Source: Escherichia coli (GTDB taxonomy: Bacteria > Pseudomonadota > Gammaproteobacteria > Enterobacterales > Enterobacteriaceae). From it: a stretch of 64,000 nt of DNA. Under the pieces are notes generated by a model. The model had not been told where the DNA came from, ran no database searches, and saw only the letters and a list, made by a program, of their open reading frames with translations. This document shows positions 51,428 to 64,000 of this stretch, piece by piece; the stretch's first letter is position 1, and every line of letters begins with the position of its first letter. Made by a program: the position numbers and the translations under genes. Location: NCBI RefSeq assembly GCF_003790525.1, contig NZ_CP033635.1. One strand, 5' to 3'.

Positions 51428-51535
51428 TGAAGAATCTTTACCGGAGTGTGAGCCAAATCACTCGCGATAAGTTTGAGCGAACAATGCCACAGGCGTATTG
51501 TTGTTGGGCTTATAATTTCTCCGGTAAGGAATACC

Positions 51536-53280: not shown

Positions 53281-55539
53281 ATGAGCGATATGGCAGAGCG
53301 CCTTGCGCTACATGAATTTACGGAAAACGCCTACTTAAACTACTCCATGTACGTGATCATGGACCGTGCGTTGCCGTTTATTGGTGATGGTCTGAAACCC
53401 GTTCAGCGGCGCATTGTGTATGCGATGTCTGAACTGGGTCTGAATGCCAGTGCCAAATTTAAAAAATCGGCCCGTACCGTCGGTGACGTACTGGGTAAAT
53501 ACCATCCGCACGGCGATATTGCCTGTTATGGAGCGATGGTCCTGATGGCGCAGCCGTTCTCTTACCGTTATCCGCTGGTTGATGGTCAGGGGAACTGGGG
53601 CGCGCCGGACGATCCGAAATCGTTCGCGGCAATGCGTTACACCGAATCCCGGTTATCGAAATATTCTGAGTTGCTATTAAGCGAGCTTGGACAGGGGACG
53701 GCTGACTGGGTGCCAAACTTCGACGGCACCTTACAGGAGCCGAAAATGCTGCCAGCCCGCCTGCCGAACATTTTGCTTAACGGCACCACCGGTATTGCCG
53801 TCGGCATGGCGACCGATATTCCACCGCATAACCTGCGTGAAGTGGCTCAGGCGGCAATCGCATTAATCGACCAGCCGAAAACCACGCTCGATCAGCTGCT
53901 GGATATCGTGCAGGGGCCGGATTATCCGACTGAAGCGGAAATTATCACTTCGCGCGCCGAGATTCGTAAAATCTACGAGAACGGACGTGGTTCAGTGCGT
54001 ATGCGCGCGGTTTGGAAGAAAGAAGATGGCGCGGTGGTTATTAGCGCATTGCCGCATCAGGTTTCAGGTGCGCGCGTACTGGAGCAAATTGCTGCGCAAA
54101 TGCGCAACAAAAAGCTGCCGATGGTTGACGATCTGCGCGATGAATCTGACCACGAGAACCCGACCCGTCTGGTGATTGTGCCGCGTTCCAACCGCGTGGA
54201 TATGGATCAGGTGATGAACCACCTCTTCGCTACCACCGATCTGGAAAAGAGCTATCGCATTAACCTCAATATGATCGGTCTGGATGGTCGTCCGGCGGTG
54301 AAAAACCTGCTGGAAATCCTCTCCGAATGGCTGGTGTTCCGCCGCGATACCGTGCGCCGCCGACTGAACTATCGTCTGGAGAAAGTCCTCAAGCGCCTGC
54401 ATATCCTCGAAGGTTTGCTGGTGGCGTTTCTCAATATCGACGAAGTGATTGAGATCATTCGTAATGAAGATGAACCGAAACCGGCGCTGATGTCGCGGTT
54501 TGGCCTTACGGAAACCCAGGCGGAAGCGATCCTCGAACTGAAACTGCGTCATCTTGCCAAACTGGAAGAGATGAAGATTCGCGGTGAGCAGAGTGAGCTG
54601 GAAAAAGAGCGCGACCAGTTGCAGGGCATTTTGGCTTCCGAGCGTAAAATGAATAACCTGCTGAAGAAAGAACTGCAGGCAGACGCGCAAGCCTACGGTG
54701 ACGAACGTCGTTCGCCGTTGCAGGAACGCGAAGAAGCGAAAGCGATGAGCGAGCACGACATGCTGCCGTCTGAACCTGTCACCATTGTGCTGTCGCAGAT
54801 GGGCTGGGTACGCAGCGCTAAAGGCCATGATATCGACGCGCCGGGCCTGAATTATAAAGCGGGCGATAGCTTCAAAGCGGCGGTGAAAGGTAAGAGCAAC
54901 CAACCGGTAGTGTTTGTTGATTCCACCGGTCGTAGCTATGCCATCGACCCGATTACGCTGCCGTCGGCGCGTGGTCAGGGCGAACCGCTCACCGGCAAAT
55001 TAACGTTGCCGCCTGGAGCGACCGTTGACCATATGCTGATGGAAAGCGACGATCAGAAACTGCTGATGGCTTCCGATGCGGGTTACGGTTTCGTCTGCAC
55101 CTTTAACGATCTGGTGGCGCGTAACCGTGCAGGTAAGGCTTTGATCACCTTACCGGAAAATGCCCATGTTATGCCGCCGGTGGTGATTGAGGATGCTTCC
55201 GATATGCTGCTGGCAATCACTCAGGCAGGCCGTATGTTGATGTTCCCGGTAAGCGATCTGCCGCAGTTGTCGAAGGGCAAAGGCAATAAGATTATCAACA
55301 TTCCGTCGGCAGAAGCCGCGCGTGGCGAGGATGGTCTGGCGCAACTGTACGTTCTACCACCGCAAAGCACGCTGACCATTCATGTTGGGAAACGCAAAAT
55401 TAAACTGCGTCCGGAAGAGCTACAGAAAGTCACTGGCGAACGTGGACGCCGCGGTACGTTGATGCGCGGTTTGCAGCGTATCGATCGTGTTGAGATCGAC
55501 TCTCCTCGCCGTGCCAGCAGCGGTGATAGCGAAGAGTAA
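53281..55539 (+). CDS. parC: DNA topoisomerase IV subunit A, carrying S80I and E84G in the QRDR
   Basis: 752-aa ORF; codon 80 is ATT (53518-53520) and codon 84 is GGA (53530-53532), giving [13 protein letters not shown]. Confidence 0.97.
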
Positions 55540-57997: not shown

Positions 57998-58005
57998 TGG
58001 ACCAA

Positions 58006-58037
58006 TTCAATGCCCCACAGAGTGGTGGGGCATTGAA
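58006..58037. terminator. Bidirectional hairpin between ftsP and the TRAP operon
   Basis: caatgccccac-(loop)-gtggggcattg, an 11-bp perfect stem. Confidence 0.45.
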
Positions 58038-58067
58038 AATTACTCAGTATGCAGTCTTCATTGTGTA

Positions 58068-59414
58068 TCAGGTCGAAAATAATCCTGGCAGCATCAGACT
58101 AAGCTGCGGGAAATAACAAATAATTGCCATTACTACAAACAATGCCAGAAACATCGGCAGTAATGGTTTTATTGCCCTGTCGATACTGACCTTACCAATG
58201 CTGCAACCAACAAACAGAATGGTGCCAACGGGTGGTGTACAAAGGCCAATGGTCAAGTTGAACACCATAATAATACCGAAGTGGATGGGATCTATTCCCA
58301 GATGCTGAGCGATCGGCAGGAAAATAGGCGTAAATATCAGGATCGCCGGTGTGATATCCATAAAGGTACCGACGATCAACAGAATGATATTGATGATAAA
58401 CAGAATAACCCATTTGTTATCCGAAACACTGGTAATCAGTTCGTTGATCAACTCAGGAACATCAGCATTCGTCATGGCCCATGACATCCCCATCGAGCAG
58501 CCTACCAGTAACAGAACAATTGAACTGGTTACTACCGAATCTAACAGAATATCATTGAGCTTCTTAAAAGTGATTTCCCGGTAAATCATCGCCAGGGCTA
58601 AACTATAAATTACCGCAATTGCCGATGCTTCCGTGGGCGTGAATACCCCTGCGATAATACCGCCAATAATGATAAAAATAAGCATCAGGCTGGGAATTGA
58701 TTCGCGGAATACCTGCAAAAATTGATGAAAATTGATACGTTCGGCCACCGGATAATGGTTACGTCGCGCATAAAGTGCCGCCACAAACATTAAAGCAGCA
58801 GCGGTGAGAATGCCTGGCAAGTATCCGGCTAAGAACAACGCAGCAACAGAAGTCCCGCCACTGGCGAGGGAATAAACAATCAACACATTGCTCGGTGGGA
58901 TCATCAGGCCAATGGGGGCAGAGGCAATATTAACCGCTGCTGAAAACGCCGGATCATAGCCCTCTTTTTCTTGCAGTGGTGACATAATTCCACCTACCGC
59001 GGCGGCTGACGCAACGGCTGAACCTGAAATCGCACCAAACAGCGTATTCGCGAGGATATTACAATGAGCCAGTGAGCCAGGAAGACGCCCAACTAATGCT
59101 TGCGCTAGGTTAACCAGTCGTCTGGCTATACCACCGGTATTCATAATGTTTCCGGCTAACACGAAGAAGGGAATGGCTAATAGCGTAAAGCCATCCAGCC
59201 CCACAGTCATCTTTTGCGAAATCACAGAAATGGCGGCATCGGGTGGTAAGGCAGTAATAATAGATAACAGCGAAGAAAGACCAATCGCAAAAGTAATTGG
59301 CACACCGATTGCCAGCATGACGGCAAAACTGCCAAATAAAATTAAGACGGGGTAGATATATTCAAAGTCCATATTTCCCTCGTTAATGAAAATTCCGTTT
59401 ACGATAGTTGTCAA
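58068..59414 (-). CDS. TRAP transporter large permease (DctM family)
   Basis: 448-aa polytopic ORF; the true start may be the internal MDFEYIYP. Confidence 0.85.
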   Translation of the reverse strand: MTTIVNGIFINEGNMDFEYIYPVLILFGSFAVMLAIGVPITFAIGLSSLLSIITALPPDAAISVISQKMTVGLDGFTLLAIPFFVLAGNIMNTGGIARRLVNLAQALVGRLPGSLAHCNILANTLFGAISGSAVASAAAVGGIMSPLQEKEGYDPAFSAAVNIASAPIGLMIPPSNVLIVYSLASGGTSVAALFLAGYLPGILTAAALMFVAALYARRNHYPVAERINFHQFLQVFRESIPSLMLIFIIIGGIIAGVFTPTEASAIAVIYSLALAMIYREITFKKLNDILLDSVVTSSIVLLLVGCSMGMSWAMTNADVPELINELITSVSDNKWVILFIINIILLIVGTFMDITPAILIFTPIFLPIAQHLGIDPIHFGIIMVFNLTIGLCTPPVGTILFVGCSIGKVSIDRAIKPLLPMFLALFVVMAIICYFPQLSLMLPGLFST

Positions 59415-59865
59415 TAATATTCATTACTGAATACCAGACCAGAATAAGTCCACTGACAGGCATAACCCAATATACTTTATCCATTGGCCATTTTAATACT
59501 GGAGAGATTTGTCCAACATGTTGTGCTTTTTCAACAACAATATTCCCGCCATAGATCATGAAAATAACCGCAAAGACCGTAATAATAATTTGGATAAAAC
59601 TGTCAAGCGTCAGAACAGATGCAGCCGGAAGTTTTTGAGCCAACAAATCAATGGCCAGATGTTTTTTTAACCCCGCAGTATATACACCGCCAAGTAAAAT
59701 CATCCACATAAATAAAATCTGGGTGAACTCATCAAGCACAGTGCTGGGAGCGTTAAAAATAAAACGTGCAATAACTTGCTAGGTTACGCAGAACACCATA
59801 ATGGCGAGAATAATGCAGCAACATCCGGCAAGGATCTTATTAAGAATATGAGTGAGTGTTCGCAT
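59383..59865 (-). pseudogene. TRAP transporter small permease (DctQ family) interrupted by an in-frame TAG at codon 29
   Basis: ATG at 59865 with a GGAAG SD, giving MRTLTHILNKILAGCCCIILAIMVFCVT, then TAG (59781-59779), then the frame continues QVIARFIFNAPSTVLDEFTQILFMWMILLGG... to 59383. Confidence 0.6.
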
Positions 59866-59906
59866 AAGTCTTCCATGAAAAGGCAGGAATTACCTGCCCA
59901 TTAGGG

Positions 59907-60890
59907 TTACATACTTTCTACTAGCTCAAGGTTTTTGGCTGATTGTGCATCTTTCGCCTTGAATTCATCGTATAACGGTTTGACGCGTTCTTTGAAAGCG
60001 GATTTATCAACATCAACAACTGTTGCGTTCATCCCTTTCATTTTGTCGTAGGCTTCTTTTTCAGCCGCAGGCCAGATGACGTCCTTCATCTGCATCATGG
60101 ACTCATCGGCTGCTTTTAATAATGCCGTGCGCTCTTTATCACCAAGTTTATTCAACACGTTGGTGCTGATAATTAACACATCAGGTACCATGGTGTGTTC
60201 ATCACGTGAATAGACTTTTGCGACTTCGGCGTGACGCATATCGGAATAGACAACGGTATTGTTCTCTCCGCCATCAACCACTCCTTGCTGAAGTGCGGTG
60301 TAGAGTTCGCCTTGCGCCATCGGGGTAGCGACACCACCGAGTGCTTTCATCATTGCAATGGCGCTGGGGCTTTGTTGAACCCTGATTTTCATTCCCGCTA
60401 AATCTTCAGGTTTTGTAATCGGTTTATTGGAATAAAAACTTCTCGCACCGCCGTCATAGTACGTAATACCAACAAAACCTTTGCTTTCTGATGAATTAAG
60501 TATTTTTTTACCTAAATCACTTTGCAGAACACGATAATAGTGATCACGGTCGCGGAATAAGAACGGCAGACTGAAAAGGCTGTAATCTGGAGCAAATGAT
60601 TCTAGTGATGCGGCATTAACCTTAACCATCTGTAATGCACCGGAGTTCATTAATTCCAGTGATTCACGCTCATTACCTAATGTTGCATTTGGGTAAATGC
60701 GAATAACTAATTCACCATTAGAATACTCTTTGGTTTTATCCGCTAAATAGCTTAATGCTTTATGGACAGCATGGCTTTTATCCTGATTATGACTCAGTTT
60801 TAATGTTGTTTTTGCCAGTGTGGTATTAGATATTAATAAACAACTGGTTAACAGCATAAGCGATGCCGTCAGAGGACGAAGTGCTTTCAT
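59907..60890 (-). CDS. TRAP transporter periplasmic solute-binding protein (DctP family)
   Basis: 327-aa ORF with a signal peptide and DctP-type fold. Confidence 0.85.
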   Translation of the reverse strand: MKALRPLTASLMLLTSCLLISNTTLAKTTLKLSHNQDKSHAVHKALSYLADKTKEYSNGELVIRIYPNATLGNERESLELMNSGALQMVKVNAASLESFAPDYSLFSLPFLFRDRDHYYRVLQSDLGKKILNSSESKGFVGITYYDGGARSFYSNKPITKPEDLAGMKIRVQQSPSAIAMMKALGGVATPMAQGELYTALQQGVVDGGENNTVVYSDMRHAEVAKVYSRDEHTMVPDVLIISTNVLNKLGDKERTALLKAADESMMQMKDVIWPAAEKEAYDKMKGMNATVVDVDKSAFKERVKPLYDEFKAKDAQSAKNLELVESM

Positions 60891-60962
60891 ATCCTGCTCC
60901 TGGTTAATATAACAGAAACGATAAATACAGCGCTTTTCTATCGTTATAATAAAAAGTAGTGA

Positions 60963-61973
60963 TTAATTCTCTGCCAGATAATGGAATATTCCTGCCGGAA
61001 CCGGAATACCTTCCTGTTGGCATTTTTCTTTGTAGTGTATTTGCGGATCGTTCGGCGCTAACACTTTTTCGACACCGGGAGCCGGTTTAACGGCATGCAG
61101 CTCCGTGACCATTTTCGCCATGGTTTTTGCAAAAACAGGATTGCCGAGCTTTTTCGGATCGATGGCAATAACCAAACTTGCCAGCTTACGCATCTTGTCA
61201 TAATCACCATACATGCGAACAATATGGTTGCCAAAATTCGCATTCATCAGCACGCCAGTCAGTGCATCAATAGCCAGTGCAATGCCTGAACCTTTGTGTT
61301 GGCCGAAAGGTAGCAGGTTTTCAATCTTATACGGATCAGTGGTGCCATAACCGTTTTTATCTATCGCCAGCCCTTCACCAATATGTTTTCCGGTTTCCTT
61401 TGCATGAAGTATTTTGCCGAAAGCCGTGGCACTGGTCGCCATATCAACAATCATCGGATGGCTGTTTTCCACCGGGAAACCAAAGGCGATGGGGTTAGTT
61501 CCCAAAAAGCGCTCGGCGCCGCCATGGGGAGCCACACAGGTATCGGTTTGCGTCATTACGATAGCAACCAACCCTTTGTTGGTGATCATCTCTGCAAAAT
61601 AAGATAACGCACCACAGTGAGACGTGTTTTTAACGCTAACAAAACCGAGGCCCTCTTGCTGGGCCAGTTTAATAGCGTGCTCAGTGGCGCTAATTAATGC
61701 GGAATGCCCCATTCCGTCGTCAGAGTCGAGAATGGCCACTGACGGTGAAATTTGCTCAATGCTAAACTGCGGGGCTTTATTTAACCCTCCGGCAGCAAGG
61801 CGGGTGCAATAATGTTCGACACGCATAACACCATGTGAATGCACACCTGTAATATCGGCATGTACTAAAACATCTGTCACCTGTTGTGTGGTGTCGGTAT
61901 CCAGCCCGGCGGTATGTAATTTGTGGTGCACCAGTGATTTTAAATTTTCTTCACTGACATAAACAGTTGTCAT
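60963..61973 (-). CDS. Ldh_2-family (malate/L-lactate/sulfolactate type) NAD(P)-dependent dehydrogenase, YiaK-like
   Basis: 336-aa ORF ...HGVMRVEHY...GHSA...HKGSGIA... Confidence 0.8.
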   Translation of the reverse strand: MTTVYVSEENLKSLVHHKLHTAGLDTDTTQQVTDVLVHADITGVHSHGVMRVEHYCTRLAAGGLNKAPQFSIEQISPSVAILDSDDGMGHSALISATEHAIKLAQQEGLGFVSVKNTSHCGALSYFAEMITNKGLVAIVMTQTDTCVAPHGGAERFLGTNPIAFGFPVENSHPMIVDMATSATAFGKILHAKETGKHIGEGLAIDKNGYGTTDPYKIENLLPFGQHKGSGIALAIDALTGVLMNANFGNHIVRMYGDYDKMRKLASLVIAIDPKKLGNPVFAKTMAKMVTELHAVKPAPGVEKVLAPNDPQIHYKEKCQQEGIPVPAGIFHYLAEN

Positions 61974-61983
61974 ATTTGTTCCC

Positions 61984-63000
61984 TTAAAAAGTGATCACAC
62001 CCTTGACCATATTTTTATTTTCTACAACGTTACGCTGGTAATCTTCGCCAACACTAAAGAAATTGAACGCCTGGTTTTTCATTAAATTTTCGTGAATTTT
62101 ATTGCTGCGCATCAGTTCAATCACCAACGCAAAATCTTCCCGTGTGGCATTGCGGCTGCTGAGTAACGTTGTCTCTTTTTTATGGAAGGTCGGATCGTCA
62201 ATAACAAGTTCACCAATGTACAAACCGATGAAAACAATTTTGCCGCCATGACGAATAAGATTTACATCATGACTCATTGAAGCTTTATTTCCCGTCGCAT
62301 CCAGTACTACGCAAGCCAGTTCGCCTCCAAATACTTCACTAAGCGCGGCAATAAAACCTTCCTGTGTTGGGTCGAAGACATTAATTGCCAGATGATCCAC
62401 AACGTGCTGGCGACGTTGACAGTCAATATCAGCAACAACAACATGCGCCCCTTTAGCCCTGGCGATGGCTGCGGTAGCCAAACCGATTGGCCCAGCACCA
62501 ATCACCAGTACGTTTTGTTCAGCCTTGATCTCTGCCCGACGAACGGCATGTGCACCAATGGCGAAACATTCAACCAATGCTCCGGCACTGTCGCTGACCT
62601 CGTCAGGGAGAGGCACAAGGTTGTCTTCACGTACCGCAAGGTACTCACTAAAACCCCCATCCTGATGCACGCCATACAGCGAAACACGTTCGCAGCAGTT
62701 CGTTTTCTCTTCCCGACAGGCTGCGCACTCGCCACACGGAATGCATGGGATGACGGAATAGCGCTGGCCTGATTGTGCTGTTTGGCACTGGCTGCCTCGC
62801 GAAACCGCTTCGGCGCATATTTCATGACCTAATACACGTGGGTAGCTAAAAAAAGGCTGTCTGCCGGCAAAAGCGTGAATATCAGTACCACAAATACCCA
62901 CAGCTTTGATTTTTAACAGCACTTCATTATCTGCTGGTGTGGGAATATCCTTTTCCACATATTCCATAACGCCAGGCTGCTGACAAATTAATGTTTTCAT
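61984..63000 (-). CDS. Zinc-dependent medium-chain alcohol/polyol dehydrogenase
   Basis: 338-aa ORF with GHE, CxxC...C zinc sites and a GAGPIG NAD-binding motif. Confidence 0.8.
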   Translation of the reverse strand: MKTLICQQPGVMEYVEKDIPTPADNEVLLKIKAVGICGTDIHAFAGRQPFFSYPRVLGHEICAEAVSRGSQCQTAQSGQRYSVIPCIPCGECAACREEKTNCCERVSLYGVHQDGGFSEYLAVREDNLVPLPDEVSDSAGALVECFAIGAHAVRRAEIKAEQNVLVIGAGPIGLATAAIARAKGAHVVVADIDCQRRQHVVDHLAINVFDPTQEGFIAALSEVFGGELACVVLDATGNKASMSHDVNLIRHGGKIVFIGLYIGELVIDDPTFHKKETTLLSSRNATREDFALVIELMRSNKIHENLMKNQAFNFFSVGEDYQRNVVENKNMVKGVITF

Positions 63001-64000
63001 TTCTGCTCATCCGATAATAATTGGCTGATGGTGGCCTTGATGCCTTTGTTTTTTATATTCGCAAAGGCGATTTTTATTTCATTTATAAATGGCTGATGGT
63101 TGCTTAAATCACCAAATATGGCGCTAAGGTGCAGTAATGCGAGCGCCTGTTGCCATGCGTCTTGTTGTTCCTTTATTAGCGCCTGAAATTGGTCATTCAT
63201 TGGATCAGCGGCAGACTGGCTTTTCTCAACAGCATCAATGACATAATGCAACCAACCAGCAATGAGCAGTGACAGAACAGCATTGTTTTGCTTTTGCTGA
63301 TGCAATTTCAGCCAGGGCGTCAGCGCTCGCTGGGGAAGCTTTTGTGAACCGTCCATGGCTATTTGCCCGGTACGGTGTGCAACGTTACGGTTGCTAAAGC
63401 GTTCAATTAACAGGTCGGCGTATTCCTGGATGTTGATATTTAAGTCTGGATTAAGTGTTCGGGCTTGTTCATTAATCATCAGTTGGTGGGTAATGGAACG
63501 AAAATTAGCGTCTTCCATGCATTGCCAGATAAACTCATAGCCTGCCAGCGAGCCGTTATAAGCCAGAAATGAATGGCTACCATTTAACATGCGTAACTTC
63601 ATCTCTTCATAAGGCTGAACATTGCTGACAAACATCGCGCCGGCTTTATCCCATTGTGGTCGTCCGCGCACAAAATTATCTTCGATCACCCACTGACGAA
63701 ATGATTCGCAGACGATCCCGCAGGGATCGGCATAACCGGTTTTCGTTTCCAGTAAGGCGAATTGCGATTCAGTCATTGCCGGAACAATGCGATCTACCAT
63801 CGTGCCTGGAAATGAGACATTTTCTTCGATCCACTGAGCCAGGGGCTGGTCCAGTTGTCGGGCAAAACCGAGAACGGCATTGCGCGTCAGATGCCCATTG
63901 TCTGGCAAGTTGTCACAGGAGAGCACACTAAAAGCGGCGAGTCCTGTCGCTTTACGTTGTTGCAAAGCACAGACGATCACGCCAATAGCTGACAGAGGCG
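62997..64000 (-). CDS. Mannitol-dehydrogenase-family oxidoreductase (mannonate/fructuronate reductase-like), N-terminus outside the window
   Basis: The frame stays open to the window edge; the C-terminal 330 or so residues are of mannitol-DH type; overlaps the Zn-ADH start by 4 nt. Confidence 0.75.
   Translation of the reverse strand, partial: PLSAIGVIVCALQQRKATGLAAFSVLSCDNLPDNGHLTRNAVLGFARQLDQPLAQWIEENVSFPGTMVDRIVPAMTESQFALLETKTGYADPCGIVCESFRQWVIEDNFVRGRPQWDKAGAMFVSNVQPYEEMKLRMLNGSHSFLAYNGSLAGYEFIWQCMEDANFRSITHQLMINEQARTLNPDLNINIQEYADLLIERFSNRNVAHRTGQIAMDGSQKLPQRALTPWLKLHQQKQNNAVLSLLIAGWLHYVIDAVEKSQSAADPMNDQFQALIKEQQDAWQQALALLHLSAIFGDLSNHQPFINEIKIAFANIKNKGIKATISQLLSDEQK

Follow-up and report, generated by a model that had tools for sequence, protein, structure and literature searches.

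What are the extra genes that some Escherichia coli carry between ftsP and ygiQ, and what might they do for the cell? To address this question, we analyzed a 64,000-nucleotide stretch of E. coli DNA (contig NZ_CP033635.1; hereafter the window), the end of which carries most of such an insertion. We read it as an accessory operon for importing and breaking down a sugar acid—a TRAP transporter coupled to an enzyme cassette that would invert C5—in which a lesion in dctQ would block uptake in this strain, a reading to which we give a probability of roughly 60%. The accessory gene island itself is genuine but has been catalogued before: a 2026 study described it in silico as “GR 21” (PMC12928451). 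The absence from K-12 implied in a preliminary description held. In MG1655, nothing but a 110-bp spacer separates ftsP from ygiQ, and among 5426 complete E. coli genomes 1207 carry the island and 4198 have the empty, K-12-type junction.

Where does the island begin, and what does it contain? It is a low-GC segment of ~7.7 kb (GC of 0.452 vs. 0.54 in the flanks) that fills the ftsP-ygiQ spacer, most of it lying at 57999-64000; positions 58000-64000 are 100% identical to E. coli SMS-3-5 sequence. Alignment to the K-12 spacer places its left edge immediately behind the ftsP stop codon, at 57999 and not at 58038, where it had previously been set. K-12 homology stops one base past that codon, and a 59-bp K-12 segment with a different hairpin has been replaced by the island. 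The spacer between the convergent ftsP and dctM genes (57999-58067, belonging to neither strand) contains an inverted repeat, AATGCCCCAC-AGAGTG-GTGGGGCATT, at 58009-58034, which likely acts as a two-way terminator. All seven genes of the whole island are metabolic or regulatory; no integrase, transposase, or tRNA target of the kind that marks a mobile genomic island is present, and the junctions are clean, with no flanking direct repeats where the aligned junction sequences end. The same island occupies the same site in Klebsiella spallanzanii, E. whittamii, and E. albertii (the E. albertii copy has alignment gaps in three genes). All seven genes are under purifying selection, with dN/dS of 0.01-0.2 across E. 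coli lineages and E. whittamii, and the four intact island copies examined contain no internal stops.

Are these genes expressed together? The operon's six minus-strand reading frames in the window match the RefSeq annotation of SMS-3-5 and are separated—from dctM to the mannitol-dehydrogenase-family gene, in order—by 10, 41, 72, 10, and -4 bp, and promoter-like and terminator-like sites inside the operon occur no more often than in shuffled sequence. The short gaps and the lack of any excess of such internal sites are consistent with the single minus-strand operon first proposed for this place. Beyond 64000, SMS-3-5 continues with a 249-aa GntR/FCD regulator—a gene that the preliminary description had expected there—and then with ygiQ, with no other gene in between. 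This regulator is 38.5% identical to UxuR, and such a UxuR-like GntR/FCD repressor probably governs a single transcript comprising the mannitol-dehydrogenase-family gene, the Zn-dependent alcohol dehydrogenase (Zn-ADH) gene, the Ldh_2 gene, dctP, dctQ, and dctM.

What would the transporter import? The large permease gene, dctM (58068-59372, minus strand; 434 aa), scores 511.7 bits against TIGR00786 (cutoff 268), the gene for the periplasmic solute-binding protein (SBP), dctP (59907-60890, minus strand; 327 aa), scores 220 against TIGR00787 (cutoff 175), and PF03480, PF04290, and PF06808 are annotated on the orthologous TRAP genes of K. spallanzanii. These family models, combined with the adjacency of the genes, classify dctPQM as a DctP-type TRAP transporter. 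DctM is 91% identical to its K. spallanzanii counterpart and 37% to YiaN, with dN/dS of 0.01-0.04. The three genes are positional orthologues of Salmonella Typhimurium STM3169-STM3171, which occupy the same ygiQ/ftsP slot (in the order ygiQ, dctPQM, ftsP, plsC, parC) and are 83% (DctP), 88% (DctM), and 70% (DctQ) identical. In binding rather than transport experiments on six compounds, the KD of STM3169 for D-glucuronate was 0.17-0.25 µM, with N35, Q36, E74, R150, R170, N210, and D237 as the ligand residues (PMC7660916). The island DctP aligns with identical residues at all seven positions, including R170 (and R150), the arginine assigned to the ligand carboxylate in that study. The best PDB matches of DctP are 4OVR, 4X8R, 4N8Y, 4N91, 4MHF, and 4N15, of which 4N91 and 4MHF bind glucuronate; matches to uronate-type SBPs reach 200-233 bits, vs. 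103.8 bits for the GulP-like 4PBQ far down the list. The transporter would take up a periplasmic, glucuronate-shaped carboxylate, D-glucuronate being the sole ligand shown for the Salmonella orthologue. Orthology to an already characterized system at the same site extends to the transporter only, and K-12, whose site is empty, offers no match.

In this strain, however, one transporter gene is broken, a point that escaped the preliminary description, which counted dctQ among the encoded TRAP genes. The small permease gene (59383-59865, minus strand) is a pseudogene: its translation is interrupted, RefSeq annotates an “internal stop,” and codon 29 (59779-59781) is an in-frame TAG, a TGG-to-TAG change at 59780 having turned Trp29 into an amber codon. 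Nissle 1917 and strain MG32 have an intact dctQ with TGG at this codon, and an allele-specific 55-mer detected the TAG form in 38 genomes and the TGG form in 1159 among the 1207 island carriers. Because a TRAP transporter depends on its Q subunit, uptake is probably lost here; the mutation would remove the DctQ membrane component and leave the enzymes stranded. Since a later GTG could start a 118-aa DctQ fragment and amber read-through is possible, this loss of transport is a prediction.

Which reactions might the three dehydrogenases catalyze? The family assignments made earlier agree with the best enzyme models (Ldh_2, Zn-dependent oxidoreductase, and fructuronate reductase), as they do with the TRAP models above cutoff. 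The Ldh_2-family (type-2 malate/L-lactate dehydrogenase) oxidoreductase (60963-61973, minus strand; 336 aa) is AllD-like, with AllD as its top PDB match (263 bits) and identities of 40.4% to AllD and 26.7% to YiaK. Its predicted substrate is a 2-oxo or 2-hydroxy acid. We rejected its assignment as AllD ureidoglycolate dehydrogenase: it scores below both AllD model cutoffs (340.7 vs. 356 and 318.3 vs. 496.2), and its neighbors are sugar-acid genes, not allC/allE. The Zn-dependent medium-chain dehydrogenase (61984-63000, minus strand; 338 aa) shares 55.6% identity along its entire length with the L-galactonate oxidoreductase LgoD/YjjN of K-12, has RspB (4ILK) as its top PDB match, and reaches the cutoff of no NCBIfam equivalog model. 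We predict that it is a 5-dehydrogenase for an L-configured hexonate. The long-chain mannitol-dehydrogenase-family oxidoreductase (62997-64000 at the window end, minus strand; full gene to 64469) has 490 aa at full length, as read from SMS-3-5 (L001:13998-15470), matches the fructuronate reductase model best, and is 48.7% identical to UxuB, with YdfI (4IM7, 475 bits) as its top PDB match. Its predicted role is that of a 5-keto-hexonate (fructuronate-type) reductase. It falls short of UxuB itself, scoring 506.2 against NF011611 (cutoff 603).

How widespread is this enzyme combination? Across 36 other species surveyed, the three dehydrogenase genes adjoin one another in an unchanged order in ~32, and an orthologous GntR regulator (42-91% identical) lies alongside in 26 of the 36 loci; by gene order and orthology, the three form a conserved cassette. 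Ldh_2 orthologues (60-82%) occur in Klebsiella, Salmonella, Vibrio, Agarivorans, and Pseudovibrio, always preceded by the same two genes. The identities to LgoD and UxuB are well below those to the cassette orthologues in other genera (60-82%), which marks the cassette as a separate orthologous group. In 24 of the 36 species, an orthologue of 3,6-anhydro-L-galactonate cycloisomerase is encoded within 10 kb of the cassette; many of these loci also encode KdgK and Eda, and several encode agarases or an aldehyde dehydrogenase. The cassettes of Salmonella, Vibrio, and Pseudovibrio have DUF386/YiaL-like genes alongside, and GulP-like SBPs adjoin the cassette in Vibrio nigripulchritudo and V. penaeicida. 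The product of the cycloisomerase is L-KDGal, which differs from 2-keto-3-deoxy-D-gluconate (KDG) solely at C5. P. atlantica converts L-KDGal by oxidation and subsequent re-reduction at C5 (PMC5943477), and the corresponding step has been described as still open for Vibrio (PMC11219438).

Taken together, the enzyme mix fits the conversion of a sugar acid in successive redox steps, as had been proposed from the gene families. The cassette would take an L-threo-configured C6 sugar acid through a 5-keto intermediate to the corresponding D-configured isomer: the LgoD-like Zn-ADH would oxidize the C5 hydroxyl, the UxuB/YdfI-like enzyme would re-reduce C5 to the D configuration, and the Ldh_2 enzyme would act on the C2 keto or hydroxy group beside the carboxylate. 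The product, D-mannonate or KDG, would then feed the core UxuA/KdgK/Eda route. Two features weigh against this reading. Conversion of L-KDGal to KDG is redox-neutral and takes two steps, so the strictly conserved third dehydrogenase would have no explanation unless the Ldh_2 enzyme acts twice or on a different intermediate; and because the E. coli island contains no cycloisomerase, its link to L-KDGal runs through the orthology of cassette and regulator only.

Could D-glucuronate itself be the substrate? An isomerase-independent route would begin with TRAP import and proceed from the aldehyde to L-gulonate, D-fructuronate, and D-mannonate, one enzyme reducing the aldehyde, the Zn-ADH oxidizing C5 of L-gulonate, and the UxuB-like enzyme reducing D-fructuronate; if so, the island would provide a high-affinity bypass of ExuT and UxaC. 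The tight binding of D-glucuronate by the SBP orthologue, with its ligand residues conserved, points this way, and the steps from L-gulonate through D-fructuronate to D-mannonate have been validated for homologous families (PMC5788505). We infer, moreover, that reduction, oxidation, and reduction would fit the net two-electron reduction of glucuronate to mannonate, and in Vibrio superstes and its relatives the cassette adjoins the gene for another glucuronate-type SBP, which is unrelated to the island DctP and closest to 4N91. To our knowledge, however, none of the three dehydrogenase families is a typical aldehyde reductase, and Ldh_2 enzymes act on 2-oxo or 2-hydroxy acids and cyclic imines rather than on an aldehyde at the far end of the molecule. 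Such a route would also be redundant with the core uxaC and uxuB functions of E. coli, and glucuronate plays no part where the cassette lies beside the anhydrogalactonate cycloisomerase. We consider it unlikely.

More doubtful is the keto-aldonate substrate raised in the preliminary description, in which the transporter would import 2-keto-L-gulonate or a related ascorbate breakdown product, the Ldh_2 enzyme would reduce C2 to give L-gulonate (or L-idonate), and the Zn-ADH and mannitol-dehydrogenase-family enzymes would yield D-mannonate (or D-gluconate). This scheme would give each of the three enzymes one step typical of its family, and YiaK, annotated as reducing 2,3-diketo-L-gulonate, is a relative of the Ldh_2 enzyme, although a distant one at just 27% identity. 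Just as yiaK has yiaL beside it, the cassette has DUF386/YiaL-like neighbors in other genera, and stereochemical reasoning suggests that the pyranose of 2-keto-L-gulonate resembles D-glucuronate in shape, with L-KDGal as the 3-deoxy analogue. Yet keto-aldonates were not among the six compounds tested on STM3169, and the association with the cycloisomerase favors a 3-deoxy substrate over 2-keto-L-gulonate. It is very improbable that the island is a horizontally acquired remnant being lost, with no current role in E. coli and the dctQ stop as a symptom: 77% of genomes are without it, a clade of 38 genomes has lost an intact dctQ, Salmonella retains nothing but the TRAP genes at the ftsP/ygiQ site, and the E. 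albertii copy is gapped, but every gene is under the purifying selection noted above, TGG is kept in 1159 of the 1207 carriers, and K. spallanzanii has conserved the island at this locus.

How does the proposed transporter and C5-inverting cassette compare with known systems? In yiaK-yiaL-yiaMNO, as in the island, an Ldh_2 dehydrogenase adjoins a DctP-type TRAP transporter in a sugar-acid operon, and the preliminary description rightly called the island a distinct, paralogous set. The parallel it drew was nonetheless overstated: identities are 27% (Ldh_2/YiaK), 27% (DctP/YiaO), 21% (DctQ/YiaM), and 37% (DctM/YiaN), the island lacks lyxK and sgbH/U/E, its gene order differs, and equivalence to YiaK-YiaMNO is rejected by scores far below cutoff for NF009750 (YiaK; 125.8 vs. 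316) and NF011634 (YiaN; 289 vs. 800). Closer analogues are H. influenzae GulPQM-GulD-UxuB, LgoD, UxuB, and YdfI. In K-12, LgoD and UxuB are the closest characterized paralogues, and the best structural matches are YdfI and RspB, but the lgoD system has a different gene arrangement and relies on the MFS transporter LgoT instead of a TRAP system. RspB and YdfI were reportedly described by Wichelecki et al. in 2014 as a cryptic L-gulonate route in CFT073.

Agar degraders of the Vibrio sp. EJY3 type carry orthologues of the three dehydrogenases (60-76%) and the regulator beside the crystallized cycloisomerase (5XD7), KdgK, and Eda, whereas the E. coli island has a uronate-type TRAP transporter and no cycloisomerase, aldehyde dehydrogenase, or agarase. 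We found no published assignment of the cassette to the 3,6-anhydro-L-galactose pathway; the enzymes published for the P. atlantica route from L-KDGal via L-DDGal to KDG are short-chain dehydrogenases, proteins other than those of the cassette. In Salmonella the set occupies two sites: three transporter genes alone lie at ygiQ/ftsP, where E. coli has the whole island, and the speA-speB interval holds regulator and dehydrogenase genes that are 64-78% identical to those of the island, together with a DUF386 gene. The STM3169 gene is SsrB- and ppGpp-regulated and required for virulence (Haneda 2010, PMC3022708; Herman 2020, PMC7660916), with nothing comparable known for the E. coli island, whose dctQ, relative to STM3169-STM3171, is broken in the window. 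The experimentally validated L-gulonate pathway of H. influenzae (GulPQM-GulD-UxuB-UxuA-KdgK-KdgA; PMC5788505) differs from the island in its SBP, since the island DctP is not GulP-like (103.8 bits to 4PBQ), and in having no Ldh_2 enzyme, while uxuA, kdgK, and eda lie outside the island. Both loci, however, bring together a TRAP transporter, a Zn-ADH, a mannitol-dehydrogenase-family reductase, and a UxuR-type regulator, and the logic proposed for the island—inversion at C5—is the one that H. influenzae follows via D-fructuronate.

What does the segment between ftsP and ygiQ encode? From the ftsP stop codon (57997) to the window end, the minus strand carries six reading frames: dctM (58068-59372), dctQ (59383-59865), dctP (59907-60890), an Ldh_2-family dehydrogenase (60963-61973), a Zn-dependent alcohol dehydrogenase (Zn-ADH; 61984-63000), and a mannitol-dehydrogenase-family enzyme (62997 to past the window end). 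The TRAP-transporter and three-dehydrogenase cluster of the preliminary description is thus real and was correctly outlined, with corrections to dctQ and to the boundary. Window positions 58000-64000 match E. coli SMS-3-5 and ~30 other genomes at 100% identity, and a single base separates SMS-3-5 from the window across its final 15 kb. According to the SMS-3-5 annotation, the full mannitol-dehydrogenase-family gene has 490 codons; beyond it come 322 bp, a GntR/FCD regulator of 249 codons in the same orientation, and ygiQ. Spacings within the cluster are short (10, 41, 72, 10, and -4 bp), and a scan found promoter-like and terminator-like matches inside it no more often than in shuffled sequence; both fit a single operon driven from the 322 bp that precede the first dehydrogenase gene. 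That region (SMS-3-5 contig L001:15471-15792, equivalent to window positions 64470-64791 and outside the window) contains three TTGGT(A/C)TA motifs, one of which, AAATTGGTATAC, lies ~30 bp ahead of the first dehydrogenase gene's start codon. This copy resembles half of the UxuR/ExuR operator, and the three are possible sites for the island GntR regulator or the core hexuronate repressors.

Translation of dctQ reveals an in-frame TAG at codon 29, where the otherwise nearly identical genes of Nissle 1917 and strain MG32 have TGG (Trp); RefSeq flags the SMS-3-5 copy as a pseudogene. Typing complete genomes with 55-mer allele probes, in which the variant base falls inside every 28-base seed, gave TAG in 38 and TGG in 1159, indicating that the stop is private to the SMS-3-5 clade, whose members were isolated from humans, poultry, pets, a pangolin, and river water. 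TRAP transporters depend strictly on their small subunit; the TAG is therefore predicted to disable the transporter encoded in this window and to abolish uptake through it in this strain. Residual DctQ function, through a 118-codon downstream reading frame or read-through of the TAG, is possible.

Elsewhere in the window, parC (53281-55539) encodes S80I and E84G relative to K-12 (codons at 53518-53520 and 53530-53532), neither of which is found in Nissle; these are classic quinolone-resistance substitutions of the topoisomerase IV QRDR, in keeping with the multidrug-resistant SMS-3-5 lineage. At ~51428-51535 (L001:2429-2536) the mqsR-mqsA toxin-antitoxin pair, which in K-12 sits between ygiS and ygiV, is absent, leaving ygiV and ygiS adjacent.

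How widespread is the island, and where does it end? In K-12 MG1655 the ftsP-ygiQ gap is an empty 110 bp. Junction alignment places the left end of the island at 57999, one base past the ftsP stop codon, and the right end 49 bp short of the ygiQ start (equivalent to 65742), so that 59 bp of K-12 spacer, hairpin included, are replaced; an island-borne inverted repeat (58009-58034) lies between the convergent ftsP and dctM. The GC fraction is 0.452 against 0.54 in the flanks, the annotation shows neither an integrase nor a tRNA gene, and the aligned junction sequences show no repeat at their ends. Of the 5426 complete E. coli genomes screened, the island is present in 1207 and the empty junction in 4198 (together 99.6%); Nissle 1917, the type strain ATCC 11775, and an O127:H6 strain are among those with the island. 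One or two matches fall on plasmid-class records and could be either true plasmid copies or assembly or labelling artefacts. The presence/absence polymorphism is already known, and as a genomic object the island is not new. A 2026 genome paper, with purely in silico annotation, lists the same segment as "GR 21, ygiQ..ftsP," common to BEN2908, APEC O1, IMT5155, RS218, IHE3034, CFT073, and LF82 (PMC12928451).

The whole island also occupies this locus in Klebsiella spallanzanii (protein identity 70-91%), E. whittamii, and E. albertii. We rejected the idea of an E. coli-specific cluster, given the same site in K. spallanzanii and the cassette of three dehydrogenase genes in at least 36 species. 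All seven genes have dN/dS values of 0.01-0.2 in comparisons across E. coli lineages and E. whittamii, which implies that selection maintains the island where it is present. Divergence from Nissle is uneven (dctM and the mannitol-dehydrogenase-family gene ~96% identical; dctQ, dctP, and the Ldh_2 gene 99.3-99.6%), suggesting recombination mosaicism. The contig of E. albertii NBRC 107761 shows 2-4 gap positions in the Ldh_2, mannitol-dehydrogenase-family, and dctQ genes and stops before dctM; the gaps are possibly frameshifts reflecting decay, or else draft-assembly errors.

What might the transporter carry? DctP and DctM pass curated TRAP models; DctM misses the YiaN equivalog model (289 vs. 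a cutoff of 800 bits). The solved structures nearest to DctP (4OVR, 4X8R, 4N8Y, 4N91, 4MHF, and 4N15) are all DctP proteins, and among them 4N91 binds D-glucuronate and 4MHF D-glucuronate and D-galacturonate (PMC7660916). Salmonella enterica differs in having the dctPQM operon alone in the same ygiQ-ftsP slot, as STM3169-71, whose products are 83% (DctP), 88% (DctM), and 70% (DctQ) identical to the island proteins. The STM3169 ligand-contact residues N35, Q36, E74, R150, R170, N210, and D237 are invariant, with the same numbering, in an alignment of E. coli, Salmonella, and Klebsiella DctP. The shared slot, the high identity, and these seven invariant ligand residues make orthology to STM3169-71 well supported. 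For STM3169 the KD of D-glucuronate is 0.17-0.25 µM, whereas D-galacturonate, D-gluconate, and D-galactose did not bind; D-galactonate gave a signal in the thermal-shift assay that was not borne out by fluorescence or thermophoresis, and the ligand panel comprised only six compounds (PMC7660916). The STM3169 mutant shows attenuation both in mice and in macrophages, and the gene is under SsrB/ppGpp control (PMC3022708). By orthology, D-glucuronate is the candidate ligand of E. coli DctP. Half of the cluster, the transporter, thus has a characterised orthologue; the cassette is uncharacterised.

Direct comparison with K-12 proteins placed the Zn-ADH at 55.6% identity to LgoD/YjjN (L-galactonate oxidoreductase), the mannitol-dehydrogenase-family enzyme at 48.7% to UxuB, the Ldh_2 protein at 40.4% to AllD and 26.7% to YiaK, and the regulator at 38.5% to UxuR. 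The best solved structures are RspB (4ILK) for the Zn-ADH, YdfI (4IM7) for the mannitol-dehydrogenase-family enzyme, and AllD for Ldh_2. UxuB, AllD, IdnD, YiaK, and Tdh were rejected as identities, the curated equivalog cutoffs being missed; because the three enzymes reach none of these, none can be assigned as LgoD, UxuB, AllD, IdnD, or YiaK. A possible further link, to the Bacillus hexuronate operon (B. subtilis yjmC/yjmD), is suggested by one UniRef name, "YjmC."

With which genes does the cassette travel? Homologues sharing 53-82% identity with the Ldh_2 protein are found in Klebsiella, Salmonella, Phytobacter, Leclercia, Budvicia, and Enterobacillus, and in many marine degraders of agar or alginate (Vibrio agarivorans, V. 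algivorus, Agarivorans, Aliagarivorans, Neiella, Marinomonas, and Pseudovibrio). We scored neighbours by tblastn at 36 species-representative loci and several single contigs. The order mannitol-dehydrogenase family, Zn-ADH, Ldh_2 is preserved in about 32 of the 36 species, an orthologue of the island regulator (42-91% identity) lies near the cassette at 26 of the 36 loci, and an enolase-superfamily gene lies within 10 kb of it in 24 of the 36 species. The V. agarivorans copy of this last gene matches the crystallised 3,6-anhydro-alpha-L-galactonate cycloisomerase (5XD7) at 828 bits, and the copies of Agarivorans, K. quasipneumoniae, and Polycladidibacter share 64-81% identity with it and with each other. 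At marine loci KdgK and Eda are usually adjacent and agarases near, with an aldehyde dehydrogenase in several species. The loci of K. quasipneumoniae, Budvicia, Enterobacillus, and Leclercia combine regulator, cycloisomerase, cassette, and an MFS transporter. Their surroundings lack both agarases and an anhydrogalactose dehydrogenase, suggesting that these non-marine Enterobacterales use a red-algal sugar acid in pre-oxidised form, or a related compound. Their cycloisomerases are 62-80% identical to the V. agarivorans enzyme by tblastn, Leclercia being lowest (62%).

Transporter contexts differ among the surveyed loci. Escherichia and K. spallanzanii alone have an STM3169-type TRAP transporter beside the cassette; Salmonella has the cassette, regulator, and a DUF386/YiaL-like gene between speA and speB. 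The TRAP solute-binding protein by the V. superstes cassette is closest to the glucuronate binder 4N91, and those of V. qingdaonensis, Psychromonas, and V. algivorus are 4N91-like by tblastn similarity; a cycloisomerase match is present in V. algivorus (tblastn) and was found at none of the other three loci, whereas KduI occurs at all four and DUF386 at all except Psychromonas. In V. nigripulchritudo the binding protein matches the L-gulonate binder 4PBQ best (283 bits), and in V. penaeicida it is 4PBQ-like by similarity, each with a cycloisomerase alongside. That the regulator accompanies the cassette across these contexts suggests that it senses a common intermediate, and also that the E. 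coli chemistry is the same as in the cycloisomerase-linked clusters.

What could that chemistry be? The cycloisomerase product is 2-keto-3-deoxy-L-galactonate (L-KDGal), which P. atlantica converts to KDG via C5 oxidation and re-reduction (Lee et al. 2014, summarised in PMC5943477); a 2024 review calls the L-KDGal step unresolved for Vibrio and E. coli (PMC11219438). The conserved regulator and three-dehydrogenase cassette may close this known gap in anhydrogalactose catabolism. On stereochemical reasoning, L-KDGal, L-gulonate, and L-galactonate have a common L-threo C4-C5 end, the site oxidised by LgoD-/GulD-type enzymes and at which UxuB/YdfI-type enzymes set the D configuration. From this end and the enzyme-family chemistry we infer an L-to-D inversion pair, in which the Zn-ADH would oxidise C5 to a 5-keto intermediate and the mannitol-dehydrogenase-family enzyme would re-reduce it to D; Ldh_2, from a family active on 2-oxo and 2-hydroxy acids, would act at C2. 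An inversion pair alone leaves the strictly conserved third dehydrogenase unaccounted for, the conversion of L-KDGal to KDG being redox-neutral, and likewise the feed from a D-glucuronate-type binding protein.

A more far-reaching reading, to which we give roughly one chance in four, is that regulator and cassette form an undescribed module filling the post-L-KDGal gap through an unprecedented use of Ldh_2. This enzyme would transiently reduce the 2-keto group, letting the LgoD-like and UxuB-like enzymes invert C5, before C2 re-oxidation to KDG. On this view the module of Escherichia and K. spallanzanii would be re-coupled to a host-uronate-type TRAP transporter, with 2-keto-(3-deoxy)-L-hexonates, or 4-deoxy or L-ido uronates from glycosaminoglycans or pectin, as substrates; it would further suggest that what the Salmonella virulence factor STM3169 binds physiologically is not simply D-glucuronate. 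The same order of C2 reduction, C5 inversion, and C2 re-oxidation is compatible with the data for L-KDGal or for related keto-deoxy uronates. Also compatible are a reductive, UxaC-independent glucuronate route via L-gulonate and a route from 2-keto-L-gulonate through L-gulonate to D-mannonate. Malate as a substrate is weakly disfavoured by a malate-growth study of STM3081, annotated as malate dehydrogenase, in which malate-adapted variants still arose after its deletion and duplication gave no better growth on malate.

Solving the cassette chemistry would give functions to three widely conserved "hypothetical" dehydrogenases spanning ExPEC/B2 E. coli, Salmonella, Klebsiella, and many marine bacteria, would probably close the post-L-KDGal step of agar-sugar catabolism, and would clarify which host- or diet-derived sugar acid the virulence-associated STM3169 transporter serves. 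The uncharacterised cassette is a reasonable enzymology target, and it is the cassette family, not this particular locus, that holds the interest.

How does the island compare with known systems? The parallel with yiaK-yiaMNO drawn in the preliminary description stands for family composition but not for closeness, identities being 21-37% and equivalog scores far under cutoff. The island has none of the kinase, decarboxylase, and epimerase genes found in the yia-sgb operon. A DUF386/YiaL-like gene recurs beside the cassette in other genera, and this does recall the yiaK-yiaL pairing. Closest in architecture among validated systems is the L-gulonate pathway of H. influenzae, in which the TRAP transporter GulPQM is paired with the Zn-ADH GulD, which oxidises L-gulonate at C5, and UxuB interconverts D-fructuronate and D-mannonate, feeding UxuA, KdgK, and KdgA (PMC5788505).
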